Shown: positions 41,001-57,659, counted from the stretch's first letter. The stretch: 64,000 nt of DNA from an uncultured bacterium (GCA_965368975.1 CBDUPA010000012.1:32001-96000), one strand, 5' to 3'. A program made the numbers and translations. The notes: a model not told the origin generated them from the sequence alone.

Positions 41001-41611
41001 TCGGCGAAGCTGAAGCCGGGCACGGAGAGGTTGCCCAGGTCGCTGGAGCGCGGTAGCTCTTCGAGCACGGTCGACTGGCGGATGCCGGGCACGATGGCGG
41101 GCTGCGGCGGTAGGCCGATGACGTCGCCCAGGCCGGGTGGCTGCAGCAGCGGCTGGCGCAGCTCGGTGCCGATGGCCTGCGCCAGCAGGGCCGGCAGGCT
41201 GGTGGCCTGGAAGGAGCCTTCGAGCGCGAAGTGGCCCATGCCGGCGCTGAAGCCGTCGCCGAGCACGACGAAGGTCGAGGCGTCGAGACCTCGCCCGGGA
41301 CGCTGGCGCTCGGTGGCCGGGCTGAAGGCGTCGAAGACCCCATCGACGATCGAGTCCTGGACCTTCTCCGCCAGCTCGGCGGCGCGCTCGAAGGGGCCGT
41401 CCAGCTGCTCGGCGGCGCGCTGGCTGAGCTCATCCAGCTCTGCGCTGGACGCGGGTGGGCGCAGTCGTAGCAGGTTGGCCATGCCGCGCGCGCCGAGCAG
41501 GGTCATCGACCAGGCGAAGCGACCGCCGGAGCGCAGCAGGCGGGGCAGGTTCTCGAGCGGTCCGTCTAGGGGGCCGTCGGGCAGGTTGTTGGATTCATTC
41601 GGGCGTTTCAT
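38093..41611 (-). CDS. Large multidomain protein: helical module, degenerate SGNH/GDSL-like domain, beta-rich C-terminal region
   Basis: FVVLGDGFSAG, NLSVPG and LNGAYP correspond to SGNH blocks but lack the catalytic Ser and His; N-terminus resembles 49590-50279. Confidence 0.7.
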   Translation of the reverse strand: MKRPNESNNLPDGPLDGPLENLPRLLRSGGRFAWSMTLLGARGMANLLRLRPPASSAELDELSQRAAEQLDGPFERAAELAEKVQDSIVDGVFDAFSPATERQRPGRGLDASTFVVLGDGFSAGMGHFALEGSFQATSLPALLAQAIGTELRQPLLQPPGLGDVIGLPPQPAIVPGIRQSTVLEELPRSSDLGNLSVPGFSFADALDLRPRAPLIDRACSRTTLANFILGLPDLQLGADHGRTQAEYAHDRQPTLALVCLGYDQLLRAAVEQDATQLPTGHQVEQLLTRLLQTLPAATTTLVTTVPDPLDSAYFSTPETAAAILKTTPEFLHRHWGVGADDLVHLPGLWAMGYQTMARQVGPLAESPILPAALAASVRATIADANTAVRAAAERAGAHVFDLHATVERVARQGLQATRGTTGHHLDAGYLGGLYLLNGAYPGPTLNAHLAAEMVAWIGQEFSSVAVTAVPVDEIAASDVNTLTQLAPGEPATDAFLHPRTADEIPSIPPLPPSAQPLQEPPIQTTYPSLQPGKQQCTPAVGIPAGGLDDPSYDDPDFQPLEIPAGGWEATLDVNPELSCVGDALRPVDCPGEPPLLPGFPPFGLCERTFFGGFLPTTSALSGKIHVRIEPPDAEGKARFEIRHPSGLQGTDGDLSGPQLFRMPVQHTQVQDLPGLVSGGVLDTRTGSVYNFHYNLQNTNTALHCLMALNPDLPPPVRAALLTFPGQPNGGSSWARFTPRPGAGAQGDGFDVEVAAHMFVPLGAGSAEQPVRFALPFTTPDLQAASFVARGTSLHPRIYLTTRATPSTNSRVSVDDWPCDRVCELSAFGHETCFGDAFDLHAPELGGPATGRGHLLARVRVQFGARCGNTVPVVLQILPAGGLLDDAPVVPPFLPPGVSRGGGGFDTVMHFPKLSYDQSGLSSPDDPFNVCTATLHLPSGQIAGPLLWRGYVVQSLFAELIQVEPCTPADSFNYQGPGCFERGPDGTLVLRWNGDVFLPYPAGFHFPSAAPGGRPPLLIREHSRLDPFRSVRAVTPAAAPTLTHDPNDCSRGDVQRARSPATGVEFSYRWSIPHDPRRAPEAWFEYSNHTHGGTFRLSTLTWLDLSHTLEARDGSEPDVLSFSGFGTWSEDPGGIHQVSVQISRADDAPFVGIQVDGGVTSNVDLKPAQRTKA

Positions 41612-42806
41612 CGAAGCTCTCCTCGTCCACCAGTAGGCAGCCCGCTCGCTCACAGTCGTGCTCCACCGTGTCTTCGAAGCCTTGACGCATCAGGCGCTCG
41701 ATGCGGCGGGCGTCGAGATCGAGCAGGCCGACGGCGCCGCCGAAGTCCTCGCGCGGGGAGAAGCGGTGGATGGTCAGCGCGTGGAGGTCGCGGTGGCGCC
41801 GGGCCATGTGGCGGTACAGCGGACCCTCGGTGTCGCCCAGCTCGCGCGCGCGGCGCAGCCAGGCCAGGGCGAGGTTGATGCGCCGCGCGGCGGCGATGTC
41901 GAGGCGGATCTTGGCGGCCCAGGCGATCTGCTGCGAGCGGTAGAGGGTCTCCAGCGTGTTTTCCAGGTGTGACAGCGGCACGGCGCTGATGTCGGGGTCG
42001 AGGTAGACCACGAACAGCTCGCGACCGCCGGCACGGATCGCCGGTTTGAGCGGTGTATTGAGCAGCACGCCGCCGTCGATGTAGGGCTGGGAGCCGACGT
42101 CGGCGGGCGGGTAGAAGCCGGGTAGGGCGCTCGAGGCTTCGATCGCCAGCGGGCCCAGGGTGTCGCTCATGTTGCTGTTGTCGAAGATGCGTAGCTTGCC
42201 GGTGGCCCAGTTGGTGGCGACGATCCGCAGCTGGCGGCTGGAGCGGCGGATGGTCTCGAAGTCGATGCTGCGGCGGATGGTGCGGCTCCACGGCTCGCGC
42301 GAGACGAAGCTCGAGAAGTTGACCAGCTCCGCCGAGCGTTGCACCAGGCCCTCATCGTGACTACTGGCCGCGTGCACTAGGCGCTGCAGGCCTTCCCAGC
42401 CCAGTGACGCGCTGTCGCGCGCCAGGCGCAGGGCGGTCGAGAAGGGGTTGGGGAAGTAGCAGCGTGGGTCCAGGTACTCGGTCGGGGAAGCCTTGATGCG
42501 GTAGGCACCGTTGCCGCACGAGCCGGGGCGCTCGGCCAGCTGTTGGCGCCACACGTCGGCCAGGCGCCCGGCCGAGGCGTTGCCCAGATGGTCCCAGTTG
42601 GCGGCCAGGAAGGCGGCGTTGAAGGAGCCGATGGAGGTGCCGGCGAAGATGCCCGGGTCCAGTGACTGGTGACCGGTGGCAGACGAGCGGCCAGCTGCCA
42701 GGGCCTCGACGACGCCGACTCCGTAAGCACCGTCGGCACCGCCGCCGGAGAGCACCAGCGCTTGCGCGGTCGAGGAACCCGTGGAAGAACTAGTCGAGGC
42801 GCTCAT
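41595..42806 (-). CDS. Patatin-like phospholipase
   Basis: LVLSGGG, GTSIG (GxSxG) and YIDGG are intact; ATGA overlap with the upstream gene. Confidence 0.92.
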   Translation of the reverse strand: MSASTSSSTGSSTAQALVLSGGGADGAYGVGVVEALAAGRSSATGHQSLDPGIFAGTSIGSFNAAFLAANWDHLGNASAGRLADVWRQQLAERPGSCGNGAYRIKASPTEYLDPRCYFPNPFSTALRLARDSASLGWEGLQRLVHAASSHDEGLVQRSAELVNFSSFVSREPWSRTIRRSIDFETIRRSSRQLRIVATNWATGKLRIFDNSNMSDTLGPLAIEASSALPGFYPPADVGSQPYIDGGVLLNTPLKPAIRAGGRELFVVYLDPDISAVPLSHLENTLETLYRSQQIAWAAKIRLDIAAARRINLALAWLRRARELGDTEGPLYRHMARRHRDLHALTIHRFSPREDFGGAVGLLDLDARRIERLMRQGFEDTVEHDCERAGCLLVDEESFDETPE

Positions 42807-43825
42807 GGCAGGTACCTGAACAGTTCGGGGGCGGGGACGTCCTGGCGCAGGGCCGGCGCGGCGCTCGACAAGCCCCAGTGCCGCCAGCGCGCGTCGCCGG
42901 CATGGCGCAGCAGGGCGTGGAGCAGGTCGTCGCGGCCGTTGGCGCGCTGCCACAGGTGCAGTGCGCTGTGCACGCCGTGGCTCCAGGCCGTTGCTGCGTC
43001 CCGGTTGGCCGTTGGGTTGGGCGTGAGGTTGGACAGGGTGGTGGGTAGGGCGCGTTCGAGGATCGCCGGCTGGCGCAGGTTGACCAGCGTAAGCGCCCAG
43101 GCCAGGCCGCTGAGCGCGTTGAGCCGCGCCAGCGGATGGGGGGCGTCGCGCTGTGCGCGCGCCAGTGCCTGCTCGACCGAACCCACGTAGGGCAGGGCAT
43201 GGAAGGGGGAGAAGTAGAGGCCGCGGCCGTAGCCGTGCCACAGGTAGGGCACCAGGTGGGGGGCCAGGCGGTGCAGGTCGCGGTCCGCGCGGTGTAGCAG
43301 GCGAGCGTCACCGTCGGCGCGCAGGCCGAGCACCAGGCCGCTGGCTTCGAAGGTGACCTCGGCCCAGCCGGGGTGAGAGTGCCGTCGCGCGGCATCAAGG
43401 AGTTGCTCGAAGGGCTCGTCGAAGCTAGGCAGCGCGGCTGGGGCGCGCAGCGTCCGCGACGCCAGCTGCATGCCGAGACCTGGGTGCACGCAGGCCAAGG
43501 TTGCGCTCGGTAGGCCGTCGCGACCCAGGGGCGTGGACTCCAGGTGCTCGGCAGCCAGCCAGCCCAGCCCTTCCCAGGTCCACAAGCGACGCCAGGGCGC
43601 TAGCTCGTTGGTGCTGTGCAGGGAGCGGCTCAGGTCGCCGCGCCAATACGGGTCGGCGTGGCGGAAGAAGGTGAAGGCCTGCACCCGGTTTTGGAACTCC
43701 TGCCACACCGCCTGCTGCCCGGGCAGACGCTTGGCGGCCAGCGCCCAACCCTCGGCCATCGCCAGCGGTAGCAGGCTGACGGCGCGTGGCGCCAGGCCGT
43801 CGAGGCTGGGCAGCAGGTCTCTCAC
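42803..43825 (-). CDS. Hypothetical helical protein, remote DUF1702-like; paralog of 52149-53453
   Basis: GTG start in a GTGA overlap; WEGLG, HPGLGMQLA, YLWHGYGRGLYF, GLAWALTLVN. Confidence 0.7.
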   Translation of the reverse strand: MRDLLPSLDGLAPRAVSLLPLAMAEGWALAAKRLPGQQAVWQEFQNRVQAFTFFRHADPYWRGDLSRSLHSTNELAPWRRLWTWEGLGWLAAEHLESTPLGRDGLPSATLACVHPGLGMQLASRTLRAPAALPSFDEPFEQLLDAARRHSHPGWAEVTFEASGLVLGLRADGDARLLHRADRDLHRLAPHLVPYLWHGYGRGLYFSPFHALPYVGSVEQALARAQRDAPHPLARLNALSGLAWALTLVNLRQPAILERALPTTLSNLTPNPTANRDAATAWSHGVHSALHLWQRANGRDDLLHALLRHAGDARWRHWGLSSAAPALRQDVPAPELFRYLP

Positions 43826-45018
43826 GAGCGCACCAAGTCCAGCAGCTGGCGGCCGGGCGAAGCGCTCAGACGCACGGCGTAGAAGGTGGAGGTGGCATGG
43901 GGGGCGACGCCGACCGCCGAGTTGTCGGTGAGGATTCCCTGCAGGCCGTCGAAGCAGCCGCTGGTGGTGGTGATCGGTTGGAAGGCACCGAAGCGCAGCG
44001 CCTGCTGCTCGGGCAGGCCGCGCAGGCGCAGCACGAAGGAGCGCCCCTCGCCGCCCCGGGTTTCGAAGCTGCCGAGCTGCCGGCCGTCGGGTGTGCGCAG
44101 GAAGAACTCGTTGCGGCTGTCGAAGGGGATCGGACGCACGAGGGTGCCGGGAGCGCCCGGATCCAGGATGTTCAGGAATACCTTCGAGGTCATGCGTCCG
44201 ACCACGCGCCCGACTTCGACCTGCGTGCGCAGGCCCCGCTCCCCGTCGACCGCGCAGCGCAGGCGCAGCTGGGTCAGCTCTTGCTCGAGCTGGAAGCCGC
44301 GTGGAGTGCCGTCGGGGTGGAAGAGGAACTCGGTACGCGACTGCTTGCTGTGCTTGCGACCGTGGAAGTGCAGGTGGTGGATGCCCGGGTGTGTTCCGGT
44401 GCCGGTGTCGGGACTGCCGGTGTCGGGACTGCCGGTGTAGGGGGGGCCGGCGCCGAGGTCGTTGCTGAGCAAGCTCTCGACGGGGTTGAGCACGCGCAGG
44501 GTGAGGCGACCGCGGAACCCGGAGTCGGGACGCAGCTCGCCGTTGTAGGTGAAGGTGCCGTCGCCTTGCGCCAGCTTGCCGAAGCCGCGGTGCAGCACGC
44601 CCACCGCGGCGGCCCACAGGCGACCGTCGCCCGTCGGGAAGGTGCAGCCGGTGCCGAAAGCTTGGAAGCCGTCGCGCTCACTGGCGAAGCGGCACTCGGT
44701 GCCGACCATGGCGAAGCGCTGCGGGCGCTCCGGTCGGAAGGGAGTGGCCGGGGGGAGCTGGCCGGGGCGGGCGGCGTAGTCGTCGGGCATGAACAGCCAG
44801 CGCTGCGTCAGGTTTGCCAGCGGCGTGCCTTCGGGCGCGCTGCCGAAGGGGTACGCCGCGTCGACCAACTCGAAGCCGACCACGTCGCCGCCGTGCCGCA
44901 AGCCACGGCTCCGGTTCTCGACGCACGCCGTGACCAGGTCGAAGTAGGCGCTGCGGTCGAGCAACTCCTCGACGATCCCGAACGGGTGGGTCTCGGCGTT
45001 GAGGTCGGGCAACTGCAT
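43822..45018 (-). CDS. Hypothetical beta-rich protein, paralog family C (copy 3)
   Basis: LLDRSAYF, PPATPFRPERPQRF, FGTGCTFP, GFGKL, GRSFVLRL, LRFGAF, GCFDGLQG. Confidence 0.78.
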   Translation of the reverse strand: MQLPDLNAETHPFGIVEELLDRSAYFDLVTACVENRSRGLRHGGDVVGFELVDAAYPFGSAPEGTPLANLTQRWLFMPDDYAARPGQLPPATPFRPERPQRFAMVGTECRFASERDGFQAFGTGCTFPTGDGRLWAAAVGVLHRGFGKLAQGDGTFTYNGELRPDSGFRGRLTLRVLNPVESLLSNDLGAGPPYTGSPDTGSPDTGTGTHPGIHHLHFHGRKHSKQSRTEFLFHPDGTPRGFQLEQELTQLRLRCAVDGERGLRTQVEVGRVVGRMTSKVFLNILDPGAPGTLVRPIPFDSRNEFFLRTPDGRQLGSFETRGGEGRSFVLRLRGLPEQQALRFGAFQPITTTSGCFDGLQGILTDNSAVGVAPHATSTFYAVRLSASPGRQLLDLVRS

Positions 45019-45020
45019 CG

Positions 45021-46076
45021 TTACCTCACGAAGGAGAAGTGGGACTTGCGGAAGCTGTCGCCGAAGGCCTTGGCGCTGCCCTGCTCGAAGTCGATCTCGA
45101 ACATCACGCCGTACATGTAGTAGGACTTGCGCGGCCGGCTCTTGTACCACTCCAGGAACATCCAGAAGACGTTCTCCTGCATCACCGGCTTGAGGTCGGG
45201 TCCCAGCACCTGGCCGATCCACAGGAAGGCGCCGCGGCTGAGTTCGTAGGCGATCAGGGCCAGCTCCTGACGGAACTCGATGCGCGTGGTCAGCCAGCCG
45301 GTGATGCCGATCTCCGGCCGGTAGACGTTGAGCGCCAGGTCGACCTTGTTCTCGGCGATCGGTGGCAGCTTGTCGGCGGTGAAGTGGCGCAGCTGCGAAC
45401 CGACCACCGTCTGCACGTACTCGTCGCCGCTGGTCTCGCCCTTGCCCCAAGTCATGTGCCAGGTGGGGGGATCCGGGTCCATCTCGTCGCCGCCATCGAA
45501 GGCGAAGCGGCGGTTGACGCCCTGCCATTTGCCCGGGAAGCTCTCCAGGCCGGCGGGGTCGAAGGGGGCATCGCTGCCCGCCGCGAAAGCCTTCTCGAGT
45601 GCTTTGGTTTCGACTTCCATGGCCTCGAAGTGGCCGCCCTCGCGGTATTTCTCGAGCACCCCGGCGACGTCGGTGGCGAGGGGGCCGGCGTGCCGCTGGA
45701 AGCCGTTGCGCAGGAACTGCAGCCGGTCGACGTTGCGATCGAGTCGCCGCGCTACGATGTCGAAGTAGCTCTTCTGGGCGATCGCCTCGGAGATCCCACG
45801 CAACTGCTCCAGCTGCTGCTTCTGGTAGTTTCGATCCTGGCGCGGCCAGCGGTCGAGAACCTCGTAGTTGACGCGCAGGTACTTGTTGTCCTGCTTGGGC
45901 AGGGTGCTCTGCCCGGCATAGTCGGAGATCACCCAGGCCGAGAAGGCGGCCTCGTCCAGGTTGTCGTCGAAGATTCTCTCGTGGCCGCTCACCAGGGTCG
46001 TCTCGTGATCGCGTTGGACCGAGACGATGCTGTAGCGGACCAGCTTCACCATGTCGTCGCTCAGGTGGGTATCCAT
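45021..46076 (-). CDS. Hypothetical protein: N-terminal repeated domain B plus C-terminal beta domain
   Basis: AGGAG RBS before MDTHLSDDMVKLVRYSIVS...RWPRQDRNY; C-terminal part has FPGKWQG and beta strands. Confidence 0.78.
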   Translation of the reverse strand: MDTHLSDDMVKLVRYSIVSVQRDHETTLVSGHERIFDDNLDEAAFSAWVISDYAGQSTLPKQDNKYLRVNYEVLDRWPRQDRNYQKQQLEQLRGISEAIAQKSYFDIVARRLDRNVDRLQFLRNGFQRHAGPLATDVAGVLEKYREGGHFEAMEVETKALEKAFAAGSDAPFDPAGLESFPGKWQGVNRRFAFDGGDEMDPDPPTWHMTWGKGETSGDEYVQTVVGSQLRHFTADKLPPIAENKVDLALNVYRPEIGITGWLTTRIEFRQELALIAYELSRGAFLWIGQVLGPDLKPVMQENVFWMFLEWYKSRPRKSYYMYGVMFEIDFEQGSAKAFGDSFRKSHFSFVR

Positions 46077-46111
46077 TGTCGCGTTCTCCTGCGCAGCGTG
46101 TTGTGGGGGTG

Positions 46112-46522
46112 TCAGAGTTGGCCGATCTGCTCGCCGATGTCGCGCAGCGTCTCCAGCTTCCGTTTCTCGTACTCGCGGTCCTGGCGCGGCCAGCGGCGCG
46201 ACACCACGAAGTCGACCCGCAGGTCCTTGTGCTCGCCCTCCTGCAGCTGGTCCGCCGGCTCCAGCTGGTGATAGTCGTCGGACTGCAAGTACTCGGTGAT
46301 GCGCCAGGCGGCGAAGGCCTCGGCGGTCATGCTGTCGGTCACCATCACCGTGCCGGAGCCCTGGGGCAAGACGCGCTCGTGGTCGCGCCGGATCGAGACG
46401 AGGGTGTAGGCGACGAGTTTGACCTGGGTGTCGCCCAGGTCGTAGGGCGAGGGCAGGCCGTACTTCTGGGCCGCGCCGCCGGTTGACGTGGTGGGGGGCT
46501 GGTGGGCCGTGGAGTCGCTCAT
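46112..46522 (-). CDS. Hypothetical protein, stand-alone repeated domain B
   Basis: VKLVAYTLVSIRRDHE...AFAAW...LRV...RWPRQDREYEKRKLE. Confidence 0.8.
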   Translation of the reverse strand: MSDSTAHQPPTTSTGGAAQKYGLPSPYDLGDTQVKLVAYTLVSIRRDHERVLPQGSGTVMVTDSMTAEAFAAWRITEYLQSDDYHQLEPADQLQEGEHKDLRVDFVVSRRWPRQDREYEKRKLETLRDIGEQIGQL

Positions 46523-47775
46523 CGATGACCTCCGGCGCGCCAGCGACCCTCGGGGTCGACCAGCTGCAGGACGTTGACCATCGACAGCGCGTGCGGCGTG
46601 ATGCCAATGGCCGAGTTGACGGACAGCAGGCCCTGGACGCCCTCGAAGCTGCCGCGACCGGCGACCACCGGGCCGACGCCGCCGTAGCGCATGGCCGGTT
46701 GCTCGGGATGCGTCGGGAAGCTGAGGCCGAAGGAGCGACCCAGGGCGACGCCGGCTTCGATCACCCCGGCGCCGCCGCCGAAGGTGTATTCGTTGTGGGT
46801 GGTGAAAGCGTTGGGTTGCTGGTCGCTGCCGGGCGGTGCCAGGATGTCGAGGTGGACCTCGGCGACCAGCTCGGCGAGCAGCGGACCCAGCGTGGCGGCG
46901 CAGCGCGGGCCGTCGTGGCCGTGGTGCTGGCGGTAGCGCACCGCGCGCATCTGCGCTGGCGTCACCAGGCTGACGTGCCCGGGTGCGGGCGGTGGTCCGT
47001 ACTCGGTGCGCACATTTGGGTCGGCTTTCTCGCCGCGCATCAGGACGTACGTGACGCCGCCTTCGGGATCGTCGAAGACGCCGGATACGGCCGGCATGGA
47101 TTCGGGCTCGCGTTCGCTGCGCAGGCGGCCGTCAGGGTCGAGGATGCGGCAGTCGACGTGACCGCGGAAGCCCAGCTGCGTAAAGCTGCCGTTGAGCGCG
47201 AAGGTGCCCTGCATGCCGCTCAGGCGGCCGAAGCCCTCGCGAACATTGCCCACCGCGCCCGCCAGCAGGTAGGGGCGTCCGGCTACCACCACCGGGTGCG
47301 TGCGGCCGACTGCGTAGCCGCGCACGCCGTGTCCCGGCGCGATCGTGATCTCGACGTCGACCAGGGCGAAAGACTGCGCTCGCCAGGGGTCGAAGAGAGT
47401 TGCCGGCGGTAGCTTTCCCGGTGTCCAGGGGATGTCGTCGGGGCCGATCAGGAAGCGGCCGCTGAGCGTGCCCGTTGCCGCGCCGACCTGCTGGGTCACG
47501 CGCAGTCCGCCGTCGGCACGCGGGCTGGCTTCGGCCTCGAAGGGGTGCAGGGCGCTGCGCGCATCGAGGCCGTAGCCGCCGTGGATGCCGAAGTAGTCGT
47601 CGGGGTGGCCGGGGGTGAGCGTCGCCTGCCGCTCGCTGTAGCCGCGGTCCGGGACGGCGAAGAAGACGAAGTTGGCGGCCTGGTCGAGCAGGTGTTGCAC
47701 CAGGGGATAGGGCGAGGTCAGCCGGTTGACGTCGGGCAGCTGCGCGGGTTGGGCGCTCGGGGTCGTCATGGTCAT
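46519..47775 (-). CDS. Hypothetical beta-rich protein, paralog family C (copy 2)
   Basis: LLDQAANF, PPATLFDPWRAQSF, GRTHP, AVGNVREGFGRL, GRSFGL, MRYGG, GSFEGVQG. Confidence 0.78.
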   Translation of the reverse strand: MTMTTPSAQPAQLPDVNRLTSPYPLVQHLLDQAANFVFFAVPDRGYSERQATLTPGHPDDYFGIHGGYGLDARSALHPFEAEASPRADGGLRVTQQVGAATGTLSGRFLIGPDDIPWTPGKLPPATLFDPWRAQSFALVDVEITIAPGHGVRGYAVGRTHPVVVAGRPYLLAGAVGNVREGFGRLSGMQGTFALNGSFTQLGFRGHVDCRILDPDGRLRSEREPESMPAVSGVFDDPEGGVTYVLMRGEKADPNVRTEYGPPPAPGHVSLVTPAQMRAVRYRQHHGHDGPRCAATLGPLLAELVAEVHLDILAPPGSDQQPNAFTTHNEYTFGGGAGVIEAGVALGRSFGLSFPTHPEQPAMRYGGVGPVVAGRGSFEGVQGLLSVNSAIGITPHALSMVNVLQLVDPEGRWRAGGHR

Positions 47776-47787
47776 CGCAGCCTCCTT

Positions 47788-48984
47788 TCACGTGGCACGG
47801 AAGCGCGCCTCGGGGTCGAGCAGGCGGGCGACGTAGCGGTTGGTGATGACGTGGTCGAAGGGCGGAGGTCCGAAGACCGAGCCGGCGGTGCCGTAGATCA
47901 TGCCCTGAGCGCCGCGCAAGCAGCCCTTGCTGCCGACCACGGCGCCGAAGTAGCCGAAGCGCAGCGCCGGTGCCTCGGGGGCGCCGGGTAGCTGCATCTG
48001 GATGCTGCGCCCTTCCAGGAAGTTGGCGGTCAGGCTACCGACGGTGGTGCCGGCGGCGTCGTGGAAGAAATACTCGCTGACGCCTTCGAATTGGAACGGG
48101 GTGGCCGCTGTGCCGGCGCCCGGACGGCGCGCCTGGGTTTCGCGCCCAAAGCCGATCTCCAAGCCGAGCCGGGCGCCGATCTGGAACTCCTGCACGCGCA
48201 GGCCGTCGCGGCTGCTGAAGTCGGCACTCGCGTGCTTCAGGTGTACAGGGATGTTGACGCCGCGCGGCTCGCCCTCCGGCGTCGTGCTCCAGTGGTTCTC
48301 GAGCTGCGGGTCGTCGTCTTTCTGCGCCACCCAGGTGAGCAGCGTCGCGGAGCGATCGGGGAACGGCACCGGGTCGAGGGCGGGCAGCTCAGCGCCGCCG
48401 CGCCGCAGCTTGCCGCGTGGGTCGACCAAGCGCACCATGATGTGTCCCTGGAAGCCGGCTTCGGCGCTCAGATCGCCGCACAGGGTGTAGTTGCCCTGCA
48501 CGCCGCGCAGGCGGCCGAAGCCCTCGGTGAGGTTGCCCACCGCCGCCGCCAGAAGCCGCGGTCCTCCGCCGGACGCCCCCCCGGGGGACCACATTGGAAA
48601 GGTGCGACCGGTACCGAAGCTGTGGAAGCCGTCGCCGCTGCCGAAGCTGAACGTGGCGCGTCGCAGTTCGAAGCGCTGGCTGCGGTCGGGATCGAGTTCG
48701 GTGAGCGGTGGCGTGTGGCCCGGGCGCGCCAAGGTGGACCACGGGATCATGCGCAGCTCGAGGTCGAGCCGGCCTTCGGCTGCGGCCACCTGGTTGCGCG
48801 CCTGCACGCCGGTGGTCATGGACGGCGGCAGTAAGTCGATGCGGCAGCGGTGGATCGCCAGCTGCTGACGCAGGCCGCCTGCCGCACCGCCGGCGGGCGC
48901 GGTCTCGGGCACTACGAACAGGTCGAAGCTCGCGGCCTGGTCGACCAGGTGTTGCAACGCAGGGGCTGAGTGCCGATCGCTCAT
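47788..48984 (-). CDS. Hypothetical beta-rich protein, paralog family C (copy 1)
   Basis: LVDQAASF, PPLTELDPDRSQRF, FGTGRTFP, AVGNLTEGFGRL, GRSIQM, LRFGYF, GCLRGAQG. Confidence 0.78.
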   Translation of the reverse strand: MSDRHSAPALQHLVDQAASFDLFVVPETAPAGGAAGGLRQQLAIHRCRIDLLPPSMTTGVQARNQVAAAEGRLDLELRMIPWSTLARPGHTPPLTELDPDRSQRFELRRATFSFGSGDGFHSFGTGRTFPMWSPGGASGGGPRLLAAAVGNLTEGFGRLRGVQGNYTLCGDLSAEAGFQGHIMVRLVDPRGKLRRGGAELPALDPVPFPDRSATLLTWVAQKDDDPQLENHWSTTPEGEPRGVNIPVHLKHASADFSSRDGLRVQEFQIGARLGLEIGFGRETQARRPGAGTAATPFQFEGVSEYFFHDAAGTTVGSLTANFLEGRSIQMQLPGAPEAPALRFGYFGAVVGSKGCLRGAQGMIYGTAGSVFGPPPFDHVITNRYVARLLDPEARFRAT

Positions 48985-49024
48985 GGCGAGGCCTCCTTCC
49001 GGGAGTCGGAGAGCGAGTGCGGGA

Positions 49025-49573
49025 CTACAGGCGGTCGATGGCTTCCTTGATGCCTTCCAATTCTTCTAGCTTACGCTTCTCGTACTCACGGTCTTGCCGC
49101 GGCCAGCGATCCTTGACCGACCAGGAGACGCGCAGGTACTTGCGGTCGTTGGAGTCCATGTTGGTCTCGCTGGCGTAGTCGGAGATGACCCAGGTGGCAA
49201 AGGCGTCGTCGGTCAGCTTGTCGTCGAAGATCTTTTCCTGCTCCTTGACCAGGACTTCTTCTTTGTCGCGCTGGATCGAGACGATGCTGTAGCGCACCAG
49301 TTTGACCATGTCGTCGTTGAGGTTACGGTCGCTCATGATGGTGTCCTCTCGGGATGGTGGGGGTTGAGTCGTGGGTTGCGGCAGTACCGGGCCGCCAGTG
49401 CGGGTTGCGGAAGGCGGGGTGACGCCGGCCGGGGGCCGGGGTTCTCGAGCCACCTCTGCCACGGGATCCGCTGTGAAGCGCTGCACCTCGTGCAGGGTCT
49501 GGCCGGCCAGCTCGAAGATGGCACTCGAGAAGGCCAGAGGCAGGCGGATCAGGTGGCGGAAGAGCTCGAACAT
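49025..49573 (-). CDS. Hypothetical protein: amphipathic N-terminus, Pro-rich linker, repeated domain B
   Basis: MFELFRHLIRLPLAF...; an internal RBS and ATG at 49336 start MSDRNLNDDMVKLVRYSIVS...RWPRQDREYEKRKLE. Confidence 0.78.
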   Translation of the reverse strand: MFELFRHLIRLPLAFSSAIFELAGQTLHEVQRFTADPVAEVAREPRPPAGVTPPSATRTGGPVLPQPTTQPPPSREDTIMSDRNLNDDMVKLVRYSIVSIQRDKEEVLVKEQEKIFDDKLTDDAFATWVISDYASETNMDSNDRKYLRVSWSVKDRWPRQDREYEKRKLEELEGIKEAIDRL

Positions 49574-49589
49574 GGATCTCTCGCGGTTC

Positions 49590-49994
49590 TCAGGAGCCGG
49601 CCGGCACCGGGCCCCAGCCCTCGGGCGGCGCCTGGGCGGCTGCGTCCTGAGGGGCTGCGGCCTGATGGGCAGTGTCCTGATGGGCAGTGTCCTGATGGGC
49701 GGCGTCGTGATGCGCTGCATCGGAGTGCGCTGACGACGGCGAAGCGGCACTGTCGCCCATGGCACCGAAGACCAGGTCGAGCGTGCTGCTCTGCACGCGG
49801 TCGCCCAGGTCGTAGACCTCCTGCAGTCCTTCGCCCAGCTGGTCGCGCGCCGCCGAGCTGACGGCGTCGAGGGCTTCGGTGACCTTGCCGGGGCGGGTCC
49901 ACTCTTGCGGCGTGGCCAGGCTCGCCATCTGTTTCATGGCGAACAGCGGCAGGGTCCAGCCGAAGCGCAGCATGGCCTTGGTCAGGTCGCGCAT
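49590..49994 (-). CDS. Small helical protein, module A, with H-x-D-x-A repeats
   Basis: MRDLTKAMLRFGWTLPLF...ALDAVSSAARDQLG...YDLGDRVQ; 15-bp tandem repeats; tail GWGPVP. Confidence 0.78.
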   Translation of the reverse strand: MRDLTKAMLRFGWTLPLFAMKQMASLATPQEWTRPGKVTEALDAVSSAARDQLGEGLQEVYDLGDRVQSSTLDLVFGAMGDSAASPSSAHSDAAHHDAAHQDTAHQDTAHQAAAPQDAAAQAPPEGWGPVPAGS

Positions 49995-49997
49995 GGC

Positions 49998-50279
49998 CTA
50001 CGGGCCGTCCGTGCCGGTGCTGGTGCGGGTGCCGGCGTCGACGGCCGAGAAGGCGGCATCGACCACCCGGCGCTGCAGCTGGTCGCCCTGCTCGTAGAGC
50101 TTGCGCAGCTGCGGCCCCATGTGGCGTTCGGCTTCTTCGGCCAGGGCGTCGAAGGTCTCGGTGGCGGCCTCGAGTGGTCGCTGACCTTCGCCGGGTTTGA
50201 CCAGCTTGACCATCTGGTCCAAGCCGAGCATCGGCATGGCCCAGGAGAAGCGGAGCATCGATCGGGTGAGTTCTCGCAT
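49998..50279 (-). CDS. Small helical protein, module A
   Basis: MRELTRSMLRFSWAMPML...FDALAEEAERHMG...YEQGDQLQ; AAGGA RBS. Confidence 0.8.
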   Translation of the reverse strand: MRELTRSMLRFSWAMPMLGLDQMVKLVKPGEGQRPLEAATETFDALAEEAERHMGPQLRKLYEQGDQLQRRVVDAAFSAVDAGTRTSTGTDGP

Positions 50280-50295
50280 GTGGGATCCTTTACAT

Positions 50296-52152
50296 CTAAG
50301 GGCGCGTGATCGCGCGCAGCAGCCAGGCACCGAGGACCAGGAAGAGGACGGCCGTCCCGGGCTCGGCCCACGCCGGGTCGACGCCGAGGTCGGGCAGGCG
50401 CGGTGCCAGCAGTGCCACGGCCGCCATCAGCAAGCCCAGGCACAGTACGGTGGTGAAGGTGTCGCTGCGCTGCTCGCCGCGGTCGGCGACGCGCAGGTCG
50501 AGGCGCAGGGGGTGGTCGGCTTCGCCGGACAGCAGGTGCAGCAGCCGGTCGAGCTTCTGGGGCATCTCGAGCAGGCCCGAGAGGTTGGCTTCCAGGGCCT
50601 GGCCGAAGACGGCGGGGCCGGCGAACTGGCGCAGTCGTCGTACGCCGGTGAGCCAGTGCAGGTCGTCGAGCGCGCGCCGCAGTGGGTCGCCCGTAGGGTC
50701 GAGATGGCGGCTGTCGGCCGCGCTCTCGAACAAGCCTGTGTAGAGACTGGCGAGGGCTGGTGACGGCTGCAGGCCGAGCTCGCGCAGCAGGCGCCAGTGC
50801 AGCACCAGCAACTCGGCCAGCGTGTCGCGCTTCTCGCTCCAGCCGCCGTCGCGGAAGGGGACGAGCTGGCGCAGGCGCTGGCGCACGCGACGCTCGTCGA
50901 TCTGAGCCTTGCCGCGCGTCGACCCGACGGCGGTCAACTCGCCGGCAATGGCGTCATAGGCCTCTTCCGGCAAGTGGTCGGCGAGCTGCTGCAGGTAGGC
51001 ACAGAGCCGTGGCAAGGCCGCTGTGCCGAGGTGGCAGCAGCGGCCGGCGAGCAGGGCGAGGCGGCCGTCGCGCAGCTCGGCCCACGCGGCGTCGAGGGGG
51101 GCATGACCGGTGACCAGGGCCTGCTGCAGCCAGGCCAGGTGCAGGCGGCGCGCCAGGTCCCGGGCCCGGGGCGAGCTGGCCCGTGATGAGCCAGCCCGTG
51201 ATGAGCCAGCCTGTGATGAGCTAGCCGCGGGCTCGTCCCCGTCGCTCGACGGCGGGCGCAGGTCGAAGTGGGCGACCGGCAGCGCACCCAGGATCAGCAG
51301 GCGCGGGGTGGCGAAGAGCACGCGCGGTACGGCCAGCAGATCCGCGTCCGCCAGTTCGGCGGCCAGCTGGCGCAAGCTGGCACCCTCGGTGCGCAGGTCG
51401 AGGTCTTGTTCGAGGCGCGCCTCGAAGTCGCGCAGCAGGCGTTGGAAGGTGTCCCTGGCTGGGTTTGTGGCCTGGAACACGCTCCACCCGTTCGTTCTGT
51501 CCGCGTCGGTGGGGTCGAGACGCCTGGCGAAGGCGGGCTGCAAGTACTGCAGCTGCGGCAGCTCGTGCTGCGCCGCCGCTGCCAGTCCCGGGCGGCGCAG
51601 CCGCAGCCAGACCTCGACCGCCGTAGCGTCTGTAGCGGTCGCGTCCGCGAGCACGACGCCCGGGTGGAGCCTGGCGCGGTAGTCGTCGCTGCTGCGGCCA
51701 CGGCGCACGGGCTCGGGGTCGAAGTCGGCGAACAGCTCGGCTGCCGGACGCTGCAGCTCGCGCGCGGCTCGTTGCACGGGGTCGCTGTTCGTCGGCGGGA
51801 TGGGTGTTGGTGGTAGGAGTGGCGGGGGCTCGCTCACCGGAACCCGTGCGGCGCGCAGTTGCAGCACGTCGTCGATCGGCAGCACGTCGGGACGCGACCC
51901 CAGGTAGTCGGTGAACAGTTGGAAGGTAGGGCCCAGGTCGCTGGCGGCGTCGATCAGGCGCTGCGCCCAGAGGCCGTCCGCGGCCTGGGAGTCGGTCGGG
52001 TTCGCGTCCGAGGAAGGTGTCGGGGCAGCCCCTCCGAACCAGCCCTGCTGCTCGAACCAGCTCGATCTTTCGAACAGGCCGTGCTGGGCCAGGCAGGCCT
52101 CGACGCGGTGACGAGCGTCGTCGCGGTGCACGCGGTGACCGGCGCGCCTCAC
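50296..52152 (-). CDS. Degenerate ABC1/UbiB-family pseudokinase with C-terminal transmembrane helices
   Basis: GTG in a GTGA overlap; RLIDAASDLGPTFQLFTDYLGSRPDVLP echoes the UbiB N-terminus; KxGQ, VAVK, HADxHxxN and DFG are not recognisable. Confidence 0.65.
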   Translation of the reverse strand: MRRAGHRVHRDDARHRVEACLAQHGLFERSSWFEQQGWFGGAAPTPSSDANPTDSQAADGLWAQRLIDAASDLGPTFQLFTDYLGSRPDVLPIDDVLQLRAARVPVSEPPPLLPPTPIPPTNSDPVQRAARELQRPAAELFADFDPEPVRRGRSSDDYRARLHPGVVLADATATDATAVEVWLRLRRPGLAAAAQHELPQLQYLQPAFARRLDPTDADRTNGWSVFQATNPARDTFQRLLRDFEARLEQDLDLRTEGASLRQLAAELADADLLAVPRVLFATPRLLILGALPVAHFDLRPPSSDGDEPAASSSQAGSSRAGSSRASSPRARDLARRLHLAWLQQALVTGHAPLDAAWAELRDGRLALLAGRCCHLGTAALPRLCAYLQQLADHLPEEAYDAIAGELTAVGSTRGKAQIDERRVRQRLRQLVPFRDGGWSEKRDTLAELLVLHWRLLRELGLQPSPALASLYTGLFESAADSRHLDPTGDPLRRALDDLHWLTGVRRLRQFAGPAVFGQALEANLSGLLEMPQKLDRLLHLLSGEADHPLRLDLRVADRGEQRSDTFTTVLCLGLLMAAVALLAPRLPDLGVDPAWAEPGTAVLFLVLGAWLLRAITRP

Positions 52153-53453
52153 GGTGCACCTCCGCCGACGGTTGCGTCTCGACCTGCTGGCGCGTCCCGA
52201 TCTGCTGGCGCGCCTCGATATGCTGGCGTGCCGCGCTCGCGGGCCGCTCGCGCCAGCTGGACCACCACCGCGCTGGCGCCCGGACCTCTGCCGCCGCTGG
52301 CGCCACCCTCGGCGTGGGCCAGCAGGGCACGCACCGGCTCGATCAGCCGGACGTGCCAGGGGCTCGAGGTGACCGCTGGATGGTCGAGGAAGGCGTCGAC
52401 CTCGGGGCCGGCGGGGGCCAGGCTGCGGCGCAGGAGCAGGGCCGAGGCCACACCCTCGACGAAGGCGGCGTCGACCGCTTCGGGGTCGTGGCGCACGAAA
52501 CGTTCGAGCACGAGAGGTCGCTCCAGGTTGACCAGGGTCGCGGCGTAGGCGATCCCGGCACTGCCGTTGTCGAGCGCCAGGCGATGCGGCGCTTCGTGCC
52601 GCAGGCGGCGCAGGGCGGCGTCGACAGTGCTGTAGCCCGGTAGCAGGTGCAGTGGCAGGAAGTAGAGCGCGCGCCCGACGCCGTGCCAGTAGACGACACT
52701 CACTGACGCTCTCGCGGCTGCCGGGTCCTGGCGCGCCAGCGCATCGCAAGCGCGGCCGAGGTCGGCGGTCAACTCGGGGAAGAAGCAGCGCACGGTGAGA
52801 CCGAGGGCCTCCACCGCCGCGTCCTCGTGCGCGGTCTCGGCGTTGGCCTGGCACAGCGCCAGGAAGTCCTGCAGCACGCGGCGCGCGCCGTCGTCGTCGC
52901 CCGGCTGGAGAGCGGTGCACAGGTGTTCGGCCAGTGCCATGCCCATGCCCAGGTGCGCCATGATCAGGGCGCCGTCGCTCAGCCGCAGGTCGTGCAGCAG
53001 ACCGCGCGGTGCGGGGTCGTGGGCCAGCACGGCGGCGGCGTGGCCGTGACCGAGACCCTCGAGCAGCCAGGGCGCGTGGCTCGAGTCCAGGCCGAGAGCG
53101 TGCTCGGCGGCGACTTCGAAGACCTCGCGGCGCGCGGCCCGTTCATGAGGGCCGAGGCTGCTGCTGGCGCGGCGCACCAGGGTGTAGACCTCGAGCTTGT
53201 CGAGCAGTTCCTGGCGCACGGCGGTGCCGTCGGCGCTGGGGGCCAGGGCGCTCAGGGCGGCGTGGGTGTCGCTGGCCAGGCGCTCGCCGAAGCGGCGCCA
53301 GGTCGTCGCGGACAGGTCGCCGGGCAGCAGGTCGAACCACTCGTTCTGGAAGTCGTCGCCGAGCCGGAAGAGGAGCTGCGGCAGCGGCGCCATGCGCCGG
53401 CGCGCGCGCAGGGAGAAGGCGTCGAGGGCGGCGGCGGCCGTGCGCAGGATCAC
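52149..53453 (-). CDS. Hypothetical helical protein, remote DUF1702-like, with partial module A at the N-terminus
   Basis: LEGLG, HLGMGMALA, YWHGVGRALYF, GIAYAATLVN. Confidence 0.72.
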   Translation of the reverse strand: MILRTAAAALDAFSLRARRRMAPLPQLLFRLGDDFQNEWFDLLPGDLSATTWRRFGERLASDTHAALSALAPSADGTAVRQELLDKLEVYTLVRRASSSLGPHERAARREVFEVAAEHALGLDSSHAPWLLEGLGHGHAAAVLAHDPAPRGLLHDLRLSDGALIMAHLGMGMALAEHLCTALQPGDDDGARRVLQDFLALCQANAETAHEDAAVEALGLTVRCFFPELTADLGRACDALARQDPAAARASVSVVYWHGVGRALYFLPLHLLPGYSTVDAALRRLRHEAPHRLALDNGSAGIAYAATLVNLERPLVLERFVRHDPEAVDAAFVEGVASALLLRRSLAPAGPEVDAFLDHPAVTSSPWHVRLIEPVRALLAHAEGGASGGRGPGASAVVVQLARAARERGTPAYRGAPADRDAPAGRDATVGGGAP

Positions 53454-55102
53454 GCCAGGCTCCGCAGGTTCGCCGCCAGGGCCAGGGCGGTGGCGGTGGT
53501 GAAGGTGAGGGCGGCGGTGAGCAGGTTGAGGCCGAGCGCCGGGTCGGGCAGGGAGGCGGCGACGGCGGCGCCACCGAGGGTGGCCAGCGCCAGCTGCACG
53601 GCGCGCGTGCGCCGCTGCTTGCCGGGCTGTGACCGCAGGTGGACGCGCACCGGCACGTCACCGGTGTTCAGGCGGTCGAGCAGGCGTGCTCCGCGCGCCG
53701 GGCCGTCGTGCAGCAGCTGCGCCGAGGCGGTGGTCCAGTCGAGCAGAGAATCGCTGCTCAGCAAGCGGCCTCGGTACTGCCAGCGCAGCAGACCGGCGCA
53801 GCGCTCGGCCAGGTAGGCGCTGAGGTCGAAGTCAGGCTCGAAGCGGGTGACCAGGCCGTCGATGGCGATCGAGGAGCGGATGTACTTGATGACGTTGCGC
53901 TCGGGCATGACGTTGGTGCGCCGGGACAGGTGCAGCATTTCGGTCATCACGCGCGTGAAGTTGGCCACCAGGCGTGGCCCGTCGGGGCCGTCGGCATACC
54001 AATCCGCCGACAGCGTGTCGAGGCCGGCCCGGAAGCCCTCGAGGTCGGACCCGTCGTCCCAGATGGTGACGCGCAGGAATTGCTCGTGGAACGTGTCCAT
54101 GTCGCCGCGGGCGAGCGCCAGTGTCATGCGCATCAGGTGGCGGCGGGCGTACTCGTTCATCACGCCGGTGATGCCGAAGTCGATGTAGCCGACCACGTTG
54201 CGGTCCAGAATCATCAAGTTGGCCGGGTGCAAGTCGGCGTGGTAGACGCCCAGCTCGAAAGCGTTGGCCAGGAAGTTGTCGATCACGTGGCTCGCCACCT
54301 GCCGGCGGTCGAACCCGCGGCTGGCCAGGCGGCGCGACAAGACCTCGTCGCCGTGCTCGCGGGCGCGCAGGTAGTCGAGCAGGGTGACGCCGTCCAGGAA
54401 CTCGACCACCAGCGTTCGGCGCGTGGTGTAGCGGTCGTAGACGCGCGGCACGTACTGGCCCGCGCGCCCCTGGATCCGCTGGCGCAGCGTCTCGGAGCAG
54501 CGCGCTTCGTGACGGTAGTCGAGCTCTTCACGCGTCCAGTCGACGAACTCGCGCAGCGGCTCGAGTAGCCAGTACAGCGGCGCCAGGCGCAGCCCACGGA
54601 TGGTGGCCATCAGCGCCAGCATCATGCGGATGTCGCTCTTGAATTCACTGTCGACGTTGGGCCGTTGCACCTTGACCGCGACCTTCTGCCCGTCGAGCCA
54701 GGCGACGTGGACCTGTCCCACCGAGGCGGTGGCCAGCGGTTCGCGCTCGATCGAGTCGAAAACCTCGTCGGGCGCGCGCCCGAGTTCTTCTTCGACGATG
54801 CGCTCGACGTCGTGCCAGCCGAACGGGTCGACCTGGTCGAGCAGCTTGAACAGGGCGTTGCAGTACGCTAGCGGCAGGATGTCCGGTTGCAGGGCCAGCA
54901 TCTGTCCCAGCTTCACGAAGGTACCGCCCAGGTCTTCGAGCGCCAGCCGCAGGCGCTCGGGACCCGGCAAGGACGGCCCCCAGCGGCGCGCCGCCCAGCT
55001 GGGTCCGCGTTGATGCAGCAGGTGCCCTAGGAGATGCGCCAGTCCATGGCGCAGGGCGATGCCGGCGACATGCACGAAGCGGCGCGGGGTGGTGGCACGC
55101 AT
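53450..55102 (-). CDS. ABC1/AarF/UbiB-family atypical kinase
   Basis: FVKLGQ, ATASVGQVH, VAVKVQRP, ELDY, HADLHPAN, IDFG; C-terminal TM helices. Confidence 0.93.
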   Translation of the reverse strand: MRATTPRRFVHVAGIALRHGLAHLLGHLLHQRGPSWAARRWGPSLPGPERLRLALEDLGGTFVKLGQMLALQPDILPLAYCNALFKLLDQVDPFGWHDVERIVEEELGRAPDEVFDSIEREPLATASVGQVHVAWLDGQKVAVKVQRPNVDSEFKSDIRMMLALMATIRGLRLAPLYWLLEPLREFVDWTREELDYRHEARCSETLRQRIQGRAGQYVPRVYDRYTTRRTLVVEFLDGVTLLDYLRAREHGDEVLSRRLASRGFDRRQVASHVIDNFLANAFELGVYHADLHPANLMILDRNVVGYIDFGITGVMNEYARRHLMRMTLALARGDMDTFHEQFLRVTIWDDGSDLEGFRAGLDTLSADWYADGPDGPRLVANFTRVMTEMLHLSRRTNVMPERNVIKYIRSSIAIDGLVTRFEPDFDLSAYLAERCAGLLRWQYRGRLLSSDSLLDWTTASAQLLHDGPARGARLLDRLNTGDVPVRVHLRSQPGKQRRTRAVQLALATLGGAAVAASLPDPALGLNLLTAALTFTTATALALAANLRSLA

Positions 55103-55106
55103 CGTC

Positions 55107-56840: not shown

Positions 56841-57146
56841 CTAGGCGGCGCTCTCGGCGGCCATCGCGGGTGCAGCGGCCGTCGCAGGTTCAGCAGTGGA
56901 CGCCGTTCCCGCGTTCTTCAGAATCAGGTCGACGGCATCCTGGATCGTGCGCAACTGCTGCAGCCGTTCCTCCGGCAGCCCCAGCTGGAAGGCGTAGTCG
57001 ATGTCGATGCCGATCTCGAGCAGCGACAGGGAGTCGAGGTCGAGATCGTCGAGAAACGAATCCTGATCGCCGATGGTTTCGGGGTCGATGCTGGTGATGC
57101 TGGCAATGATCTCTTTGACCTTGCTCCGAACTTCAGTTACGTCCAT
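56841..57146 (-). CDS. Acyl carrier protein
   Basis: FLDDLDLDSLSLLE phosphopantetheine site; TIQDAVD; AGGAG RBS. Confidence 0.93.
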   Translation of the reverse strand: MDVTEVRSKVKEIIASITSIDPETIGDQDSFLDDLDLDSLSLLEIGIDIDYAFQLGLPEERLQQLRTIQDAVDLILKNAGTASTAEPATAAAPAMAAESAA

Positions 57147-57347
57147 AGCAATTCTCCTCAGCCGGTTCCCGGGCCACATGGCCCACAGCGGGCACTCCGC
57201 AGAAGTCTCTTGCAGAGAAGGTGCTGAATACTACCAATTGCTGAAGGTTTGTGGTAGTCGGTTGACGGGATGACGTCGGACCAGGCGTCAGCCAGCCGGT
57301 GGACGCCAACCAGGGGACACCCGCCGCGCGCGCCGCGCGCACTGTGA

Positions 57348-57659
57348 TCACAGCTGTCTCCGGTCGAGTTGCAGGGCCACGGCTACCACCCGCACGACCA
57401 GTTGCACCCGACTATTGACCGCTAGCTTGCGGTAGATGCGTTCGAGATAGGTGTGCACGGTGTGCGGCGAGATACCCAAGTGCTGCGCGATGGTGATCTC
57501 CTTGCCATCGTCGAAGACGCCGCGCACAATCTGGAGCTCCCGCGGCGACAGCGCCAAGATCTCGGCCAACTCGTTCCACTGCGCGATGGAAAAGATCTCG
57601 TGACCCTCTGGCTCCCAAGGCTGCGATGGGTCAGGTAGGACCCTCTGTGCCTTGGCCAT
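57348..57659 (-). CDS. Stand-alone LuxR-type HTH regulator
   Basis: LSPRELQI...IAQHLGISPHTVHTYLERIYRKLAVNSR; GGAGGGAG RBS. Confidence 0.9.
   Translation of the reverse strand: MAKAQRVLPDPSQPWEPEGHEIFSIAQWNELAEILALSPRELQIVRGVFDDGKEITIAQHLGISPHTVHTYLERIYRKLAVNSRVQLVVRVVAVALQLDRRQL

Follow-up and report, generated by a model that had tools for sequence, protein, structure and literature searches.

A conserved N-terminal helical module shared by small proteins and larger enzyme-like proteins of an ABC1/UbiB-associated bacterial gene cluster, with a possible role in assembly or targeting

Here we describe module A, an N-terminal protein domain of about 85 residues with three predicted helices, which is encoded in a 64,000-nucleotide stretch of DNA (hereafter the window) from an uncultured bacterium of a non-photosynthetic Acidobacteriota lineage (GCA_965368975.1, CBDUPA010000012.1:32001-96000). 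Module A is real. In the window it makes up most of two small stand-alone proteins, A1 and A2, lies near the N-terminus of a giant protein with a weak SGNH/GDSL-like region, and in shortened form begins X2, a member of a protein family that we call X. Across the family it is found at the head of small proteins with tails and of at least four unrelated classes of larger partner, namely X-type proteins, SGNH-like giants, proteins of a class that we call W, and alpha/beta hydrolases. Many of the small proteins end in a GWGPMP-type motif, and the genes recur in a large cluster that also encodes ABC1/UbiB-family kinase-like proteins, an acyltransferase and a patatin-like phospholipase. Judging from these sequence comparisons, we hold with moderate confidence that module A may be a system-specific assembly or targeting domain which, together with adaptor proteins, gathers lipid-tailoring enzymes. 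The domain, the tail motif and the cluster appear to be undescribed; a shared terminal tag combined with an adaptor is a known kind of thing.

The initial annotation had aligned segments of these four proteins by eye and proposed that they share one helical module, and the segments are indeed related. In an all-versus-all BLASTP comparison among 18 open reading frames (ORFs) of the cluster region, the two small ORFs (49590-49994 and 49998-50330) were 38.8% identical over 80 residues (E 1e-18), and the N-terminus of the giant's ORF (38093-41653) matched both of them, at 28% over 85 residues (E 2.8e-6) and 33% over 70 residues (E 4e-6). The N-terminus of X2 (52149-53453) matched the same two ORFs weakly (41% over 37 residues, E 0.007; 33% over 39 residues, E 0.010). 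A module-A profile run against the whole 7.1-Mb genome confirmed the shared segment at four places, with E-values of 6.9e-43, 1.9e-39, 9.6e-33 (giant) and 7.5e-11 (X2), and gave one extra marginal match on another contig (E 0.158). All four proposed copies are therefore real, and all lie on the minus strand, but the copy in X2 aligns only at profile positions 37-83 of 88 and so carries helices 2 and 3 only. Upstream of the GTG start of X2 (53453), the same frame runs out of phase through the 3' end of the ABC1 kinase gene, and no module-like sequence is encoded there. Shortening of this kind is not specific to the window, since 10 of 19 metagenome X-type fusions begin at profile position 20 or later. 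The giant protein (38093-41611) starts with ATG, and its module begins at about residue 25.

The module belongs to a large family. An exhaustive profile search over 1.84 billion representative proteins returned 752 representatives at E<=1e-3, of which 352 reach E<=1e-10; a word-based homologue search with A1 had found one relative only. Among 150 listed representatives, 144 are no longer than 260 residues (median 135), and in about 142, by eye from the table, the match begins at residue 1 or 2. No Pfam or NCBIfam model matches module A, and hmmscan against Pfam at E up to 10 gave no family for A1, A2, the giant's N-terminus or the relative P0002. When 30 members were scanned against Pfam, families were found only in two with unrelated extra domains, and the best hit of the module profile in a PDB sequence search had an E-value of 0.48. 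Ten members that were looked up by name are all called 'hypothetical protein' or are unnamed. A literature search did not find the strings GWGPMP, GWGPVP, FSWAMSLFG or FSWAMPLFG, and searches on ABC1/UbiB, acyltransferases, lipid droplets and phasins listed no description of such a cluster.

The consensus of 150 representatives reads MRELTKSMlSFSWAMSLFGlrQMaNLltP...AFDaVTrAAeeQLG...FrAGDrLQRgmVDlmFG, with helix 1 as the best-conserved part and with near-invariant residues M1, S7, W13, G19, G65 and Q69 (counted from Met). An AlphaFold2 (AF2) model of A1 from a 48-sequence alignment places helices at residues 2-28, 36-54 and 57-86, with a mean predicted local distance difference test (pLDDT) score of 79.6. 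In Foldseek, the module-A model matched nothing in the PDB at E<=0.001. With VIA-align, run on 48,161 chains, the highest Z was 6.3, for the adaptor NblA (1ojh_A; root-mean-square deviation (rmsd) 3.0, 52 aligned residues, helices 2-3), which is within the chance range for helical hairpins. The pattern of conserved polar and small residues would fit a specific fold or a protein contact better than a generic lipid-seeking helix.

In small members the module is followed by a Gly/Ala/Pro/Ser-rich tail, and this tail has a signature of its own. The motif GWG[PA][MVLI] is present in 64 of the 144 small members, in 63 of these within 20 residues of the C-terminus, against a mean of 0.23 in shuffled sequences. 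A2 ends in EGWGPVPAGS; A1 is without the motif. The tail motif tracks the large cluster type: GWGP occurs in 17 of 17 complete small module-A proteins of metagenome large clusters, the window, L006 and L007, the three large clusters known from genomes, encode one motif-bearing small protein each, and by eye the motif is present in none of the 8 small proteins of 7 minimal loci. Some relatives (P0093, P0140 and locus L060) have two or three GWGPMP-type copies. On two Acidobacteriota contigs from metagenome-assembled genomes (MAGs) of one project (L008:9665-11106 and L009:3963-5355), the small module-A gene is divided between two reading frames, of which one covers profile positions 1-40 and the other position 32 onwards, as a frameshift or an assembly indel would produce.

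The check proposed with the initial annotation, a profile search for further fusions, was productive. In metagenome loci, module A heads 19 X-type and 5 SGNH-type proteins, and the L006 locus encodes two W-type module-A proteins. A search limited to longer proteins yielded 37 relatives, 27 of them with alpha/beta-hydrolase domains (PF12697, PF00561), several of which are named 'haloalkane dehalogenase' by their sources, together with 3 W-type and 3 X-type proteins; of the 36 that were scanned, 33 have the module right from residue 1. In a quick maximum-likelihood tree of 63 module sequences, copies cluster by carrier class and not by genome (11 label changes, where shuffled labels gave 26.3 on average and none of 200 shuffles came as low), which suggests that the fusions are old and have been retained. 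A1 is sister to a small L006 protein in this tree, with support of 99.

Module A also has a characteristic genomic setting. Three genomes were searched whole (the window's own, G401 and G402), and every clear copy lay inside the cluster: four of four in the window's own genome, eight of eight within 15 kb in G401, and two of two on one contig in G402. The commonest neighbour of module-A genes is ABC1a, the ABC1/UbiB-family kinase-like gene. A module-A gene lies at most about 1.6 kb from an ABC1a-type gene in 12 of the 13 genomes whose context was read, and the acyltransferase, ABC1a and a small module-A gene are consecutive in five loci (G369, G180, G336, G353 and G100) and nearly so in G005, with one ORF between. 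In G005 (L031:11596-14175), an FG-GAP repeat protein and an FG-GAP/UnbV_ASPIC ORF are encoded directly upstream of this unit. Upstream of the small module-A gene in 17 metagenome loci, ABC1a is found directly in 5 and an ABC1b-like gene within 1.6 kb in 4, and 6 are cut too short. Related loci were sought with a 12-row module-A alignment (4 loci). Two MAGs have large window-like clusters, one labelled Deltaproteobacteria (L006) and one of the Thermoanaerobaculia (L007), and many of the 76 metagenome loci found with family Y, another family of the cluster, repeat all or part of a shared order: ABC1a, small A, A-X, ABC1b, Z, Y, Y, Z, Z, Y, X, U, patatin, A-SGNH. Of the Acidobacteriota, 401 species genomes were sampled; 9 of them have module A and 1, the window's own, has family Y.

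In the window, all genes concerned are on the minus strand, in DNA of 65-73% G+C, and follow each other closely from about 57179 to 36784, often overlapping by 4 bases. A look-up of sequencing runs for 46000-55999 listed none, RNA data included. Their order is acyl carrier protein, acyltransferase, ABC1a, X2, ABC1b, A1, A2, Z3, Y3, Y2, Z2, Z1, Y1, X1, patatin, giant and U433 (Table 1). X, Y and Z are sets of internal paralogues to which no Pfam or NCBIfam model corresponds.

Table 1. Genes of the cluster and copies of module A in the window, listed from the head of the cluster (positions counted from the first nucleotide of the window)
Feature	Position	Strand	Evidence and remarks
Acyl carrier protein-like, cluster head	56841..57179	-	PF00550 8e-11
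Acyltransferase, PlsC/LPLAT type	55107..56789	-	PF01553 3e-13; weaker DAGAT match PF03982 3.9e-6
ABC1a, ABC1/UbiB-family kinase-like, hydrophobic C-terminus	53450..55102	-	PF03109
X2, 434-aa family-X protein	52149..53453	-	GTG start; paralogue of ORF 42803-44617, E 7e-14
Half module A (helices 2-3), X2 N-terminus	53325..53444	-	profile E 7.5e-11, positions 37-83
ABC1b, divergent ABC1-like paralogue	50296..52152	-	PF03109 1e-7; start inferred, GTG at 52152
A1, 93-aa stand-alone module-A protein	49998..50279	-	ATG start; identical to homologue P0001 (93 aa); module ~50040-50279; tail short, without GWGP motif
A2, 134-aa stand-alone module-A protein	49590..49994	-	module ~49758-49994, then Ala/His/Gln/Asp-rich tail
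C-terminal GWGPVP of A2, window copy of the GWG[PA][MVLI] end motif	49602..49619	-	
Z3, small family-Z protein directly downstream of A2	49025..49573	-	paralogy, orthologues
Y3, family Y	47788..48984	-	BLASTP paralogue, orthologues
Y2, family Y, all-beta	46519..47775	-	AF2 model, fold match
Z2, family Z	46112..46522	-	BLASTP paralogue
Z1, family Z	45021..46076	-	105-residue Z core plus ~250-residue C-terminal extension without family match
Y1, family Y	43822..45018	-	BLASTP paralogue
X1, second family-X protein	42803..43759	-	BLASTP paralogue
Patatin-like phospholipase	41595..42806	-	PF01734 4e-29; GTSIG and DGG motifs
Giant protein, 1172 aa: module A, weak SGNH/GDSL-like region, ~690 unassigned residues	38093..41611	-	
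Whole module A near giant N-terminus	41324..41539	-	profile E 9.6e-33
U433, 433-aa protein without family, recurrent in such clusters	36784..38085	-	

The two ABC1-type proteins differ in quality. ABC1a matches PF03109 at E 5.3e-59 (199.7 bits, cut-off 22.9) and scores 248.9 against TIGR01982, below the equivalog cut-off of 487.6; it is therefore a family member and not UbiB proper. ABC1b looks like a degenerate kinase from its sequence. In its L006 and L007 orthologues the lysine of the VAVK motif is replaced by R or Q and the catalytic-loop and DFG regions cannot be aligned to the ABC1a profile, and ABC1b of the window aligns at none of these kinase motifs. The N-terminal 300 residues of the acyltransferase have no family match, and a PDB sequence search with this protein gave nothing at E up to 0.01.

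Family Y has a recognisable fold. The AF2 model of Y2 is all-beta and confident (pLDDT 93.3, predicted template modelling (pTM) score 0.92), and its C-terminal part (approximately residues 240-414) forms an eight-stranded barrel of the allene-oxide-cyclase/dirigent/AbyU type, in agreement with a weak language-model lead. By VIA-align, this barrel matches allene oxide cyclase 4h69_D (Z 11.2, rmsd 3.5, 140 aligned residues), the dirigent protein 6ooc_A (Z 11.1) and the Diels-Alderases PloI4, AbyU and PyrI4 (Z 10-11), and Foldseek assigned probability 1.00 to the single-barrel matches 6ooc_D, 6ood and 8qfu_A. Enzymes with the allene-oxide-cyclase type of barrel bind substrates that are hydrophobic, and the matches include several cyclases. 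At the sequence level, Y proteins matched no Pfam family at E up to 5, PF18678 and PF03018 included, and the best E-value for Y2 in a PDB sequence search was 0.26. The 55 homologue clusters of family Y are all 'hypothetical' or unnamed, some members are about 680-720 residues long, and Y-Z fusions are found in 7 metagenome loci.

Language-model features of X2 (score 0.97) lead to clusters in which 11-12% of members carry PF08012 (DUF1702), a domain labelled 'enediyne biosynthesis protein' in a figure legend of PMC7692728. Profile searches with PF08012 gave no match for X1 or X2 (E up to 5), for 13 relatives (E up to 1) or anywhere in the window's own genome, so that the likeness of family X to DUF1702 is a lead from language-model features only, which hidden Markov model tests do not confirm. 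The best E-value for X2 in a PDB sequence search was 0.94. The giant matches PF13472 at E 0.0015 and 19.5 bits, below the cut-off of 32.9 (a relative reaches 21.0 bits), and has no PDB sequence match at E up to 1. In SGNH hydrolases, the GDS motif of block I holds the nucleophilic serine. In the window, block I (41240-41272, minus strand) reads GDG, and G[DE]G rather than GDS is found in 8 of 8 sequences (the window and 7 relatives), so the SGNH-like domain may be non-catalytic or may function in an altered way. In Z3, the core is preceded by a hydrophobic N-terminal helix and a Pro-rich linker, and this protein has no PDB sequence match at E up to 10. Its N-terminal helix (MFELFRHLIRLPLAF...) was considered as a module A reduced to helix 1 and rejected; hmmsearch with filters off gave E 0.065, at a different place. 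A defence-system reading of the cluster was likewise set aside: PADLOC reported no more than a general likeness to patatins and kinases, and it recognised none of A, X, Y, Z and U. A 1001-residue ORF (57840-60845, plus strand) runs divergently from the cluster on the far side of a LuxR-type gene (57348-57659); by eye its product resembles a STAND-type protein, in which an NTPase and helical repeats come after a TIR-like N-terminus.

How might these parts work together? The proposal in the initial annotation that a shared tag recruits the larger proteins is well supported comparatively, in that the same N-terminal module sits on unrelated carriers and is confined to the cluster; from this we infer module-mediated co-localisation, and what we propose for the binding target, the role of the tail and the chemistry is equally conditional. 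Module A would draw its carriers, members of a cytoplasmic and membrane-associated system, to a common site or complex, either through contacts between modules at their helix 2-3 pair, which every carrier has kept, or by docking on a shared receptor at the membrane, where ABC1a and ABC1b, both with a hydrophobic C-terminus, should sit. Complex prediction for ABC1a (11-row alignment) with module A (48-row alignment) gave a score of 0.00 in two runs without controls, a result that weighs neither way on an interaction. The stand-alone forms would act as adaptors, their module-A head joining the tagged set and, across a disordered spacer, their GWGPMP tail recruiting an untagged component of the large cluster such as Y, Z or another protein. 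Together they would form an organised enzyme set, acting on a hydrophobic and probably unsaturated lipid by acylation, cyclisation or hydrolysis. A bolder version of this idea, speculative and in our view rather unlikely, is a sticker-spacer-sticker scaffold. In it, each small protein, with its folded head, its disordered linker and between one and three tail motifs, would tie tagged enzymes (X, the SGNH-like giant, W and alpha/beta hydrolases) to untagged Y and Z in a membrane-attached enzyme body controlled by two ABC1/UbiB-type proteins. If true, such a scaffold would be a new kind of bacterial enzyme-organising compartment, for the cyclisation and remodelling of an unsaturated lipid.

Several observations weigh against an assembly or targeting role. 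The pTM of the A1 model is just 0.48, which makes the packing of the three helices uncertain. The tag varies: little or nothing of helix 1 is left in X2 of the window and in the same 10 of 19 X-type fusions, X1 of the window has no module at all (its L006 counterpart retains helix 1), and the modules of giant proteins begin at about residue 23-38 and not at residue 1. The tail motif is missing from A1 of the window, from two small module-A proteins of L006 and from one of L007. Association with ABC1 genes also has exceptions. In G033, a small module-A gene has no ABC1a within 10 kb, and 2 of the 17 metagenome loci have 2.8 kb of upstream sequence with no ABC1 match before the small module-A gene. 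Many of the metagenome loci are close kin or near-copies of each other (among them L045/L046, L052/L053 and L080/L081/L082), so that the synteny and genome counts overstate the number of independent cases. Lastly, the module tree is a quick one from 107 columns, in which 34 of 60 inner branches are unresolved. The G033 locus has contents of its own (L039:10509-17529): behind the small module-A gene come an unassigned 500-residue ORF, two ArsA/Get3-like ATPases, a tandem universal stress protein and a FadL-type outer-membrane lipid channel, and after these an SGNH-like giant.

Of the other explanations, the one suggested by the initial annotation is a coat of the phasin or apolipoprotein kind: the small module-A proteins would cover a lipid droplet or membrane patch, the way phasins or oleosin-like proteins do, and the same helices would anchor enzymes in the lipid monolayer. 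We consider it unlikely. The cluster is certainly lipid-flavoured, with its acyl carrier protein, its patatin, its ABC1 kinases and an acyltransferase with a DAGAT match, and phasins (PhaP; PF05597, PF09361) are likewise small, largely helical and encoded beside enzymes of lipid-like storage. According to the account in PMC12223511, cyanobacterial lipid-droplet proteins include ABC1 kinases and a DGAT2-like (DAGAT-related) acyltransferase together with small structural proteins, in plastoglobule or cyanoglobule droplets; that account is a proteomics inventory and not an operon. No homologue of fibrillin or PG18 was recognised in the cluster, and the host, as said, is not photosynthetic. Nor do phasins resemble module A in sequence. 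The 48-sequence module profile has no sequence or profile similarity to them, the Pfam search already described gave neither a phasin nor any other family at E up to 10, and hhalign against the PF05597 phasin of the same genome gave a probability of 0.57%. That true phasin lies on another contig (C1, about 599.8-601 kb; L043:1444-1845 and L043:1946-2524, both on the minus strand) beside a PhaR-like regulator, recognised as PhaR by eye, and no family of polyhydroxyalkanoate (PHA) genes such as PhaR or PHA synthase was found among the cluster ORFs (Pfam, NCBIfam); the organism thus probably has a separate PHA-granule system. Amphipathicity, which the initial annotation had proposed to measure, is there but unremarkable. 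The core of helix 1 is moderately hydrophobic (mean 0.33, Eisenberg scale), and the best 18-residue windows of single copies reach moments of 0.56-0.67, equalled by only 9 (A1) and 16 (A2) of 500 shuffles; on the other side, 97 and 85 of 500 shuffles equal the moments of the giant and X2 modules, and averaged over the family, the moments are just 0.34 in helices 2 and 3 and 0.20-0.27 in helix 1, with 0.20 for its core. Fusion to enzymes and the invariant polar and small residues, unusual in generic lipid-seeking helices, set module A further apart from phasins.

It is also conceivable, and quite unlikely, that module A is a docking site or substrate of the adjacent ABC1/UbiB-type protein, perhaps at a Ser or Thr of helix 1, so that carriers are switched or released. 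The proximity to ABC1a in 12 of 13 genomes, its position directly upstream in 5 of 17 metagenome loci and the near-invariant Ser of helix 1, with further Ser/Thr residues in the same helix, would suit such regulation. The protein-kinase activity of the UbiB family is disputed, however, the adjacency is not universal, and X-type fusions often do without helix 1, the bearer of the conserved Ser. We regard as highly improbable that the module is an export or trafficking domain of polymorphic effectors, comparable with the helical N-termini of LXG or WXG100-type substrates of type VII secretion, which direct lipase-type toxins and small partners to a secretion system. The formal layout is the same, in that small proteins and varied hydrolase-like C-termini share one helical N-terminal domain, and patatins and hydrolases are common toxin domains, but no secretion ATPase, membrane component, channel or immunity-like gene was recognised among the cluster ORFs (Pfam, NCBIfam), the gene order is fixed and not polymorphic, the SGNH-like partner lacks the nucleophile, and Y and X resemble biosynthetic proteins of the cyclase type. 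Scarcely credible is a ribosomal-peptide leader, in which the conserved 85 residues would be the leader and the variable, GWGPMP-ended tail the modified core: the small proteins do recall such peptides, in that a variable tail links a conserved N-terminus to a conserved end motif, yet the same domain heads proteins of 430-1170 residues, the tails are Gly/Ala/Pro/Ser-rich low-complexity sequence, and no peptide-modifying enzyme or protease was recognised in the cluster (Pfam, NCBIfam).

Assembly or targeting by module A would have parallels in several known systems, although the cluster and its module belong to none of those with which we compared them. Like the encapsulation peptides of bacterial microcompartments (BMCs) and the cargo peptides of encapsulins, module A is one tag on several enzymes of one locus, accompanied by tag-bearing scaffold proteins. 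Those tags are about 10-20 residues long and need shell genes. Module A is instead predicted to be a folded domain of 85 residues, and no BMC or encapsulin shell family was found among the 19 ORFs scanned, nor in a relaxed scan. Docking domains of polyketide synthases and non-ribosomal peptide synthetases, and dockerin-cohesin pairs, also organise pathway enzymes through a terminal protein-protein module and a short partner element; a docking-style pairing of the module-A head with the GWGPMP tail is a conjecture by analogy, and unlike those systems the cluster is without assembly-line enzymes and has no sequence relation to them. In the ubiquinone pathway of E. coli, UbiJ and UbiK are accessory factors of UbiB and are thought to organise lipid-handling enzymes. 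A small helical protein encoded next to a UbiB-family gene is common to both cases; in contrast to UbiJ and UbiK, the module-A proteins match no Pfam family, are fused to enzymes and have a tail motif, and no ubiquinone genes were recognised in the cluster. NblA, the helix-loop-helix adaptor of phycobilisome degradation, is a small adaptor and the best structural match to helices 2-3, with the chance-range Z-score noted above and no sequence relation.

Module A thus defines a family of hundreds of representatives for which no curated model, solved structure or paper was found. It marks which proteins of a large, conserved and 'dark' cluster of soil bacteria belong together, and so provides an experimental handle on that cluster. 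If the adaptor idea holds, module A and GWGPMP could be used together as a transferable pair to bring enzymes to one place. UbiB/ABC1 proteins are poorly understood in all settings, be it UbiB of E. coli, human COQ8 or the kinases of plant plastoglobules. Here, a bacterial operon links an ABC1 kinase to a fixed set of tagged partners, a motif-bearing adaptor and cyclase-like barrels, which makes it a tractable system in which to study how these proteins act on lipids and recruit their clients.

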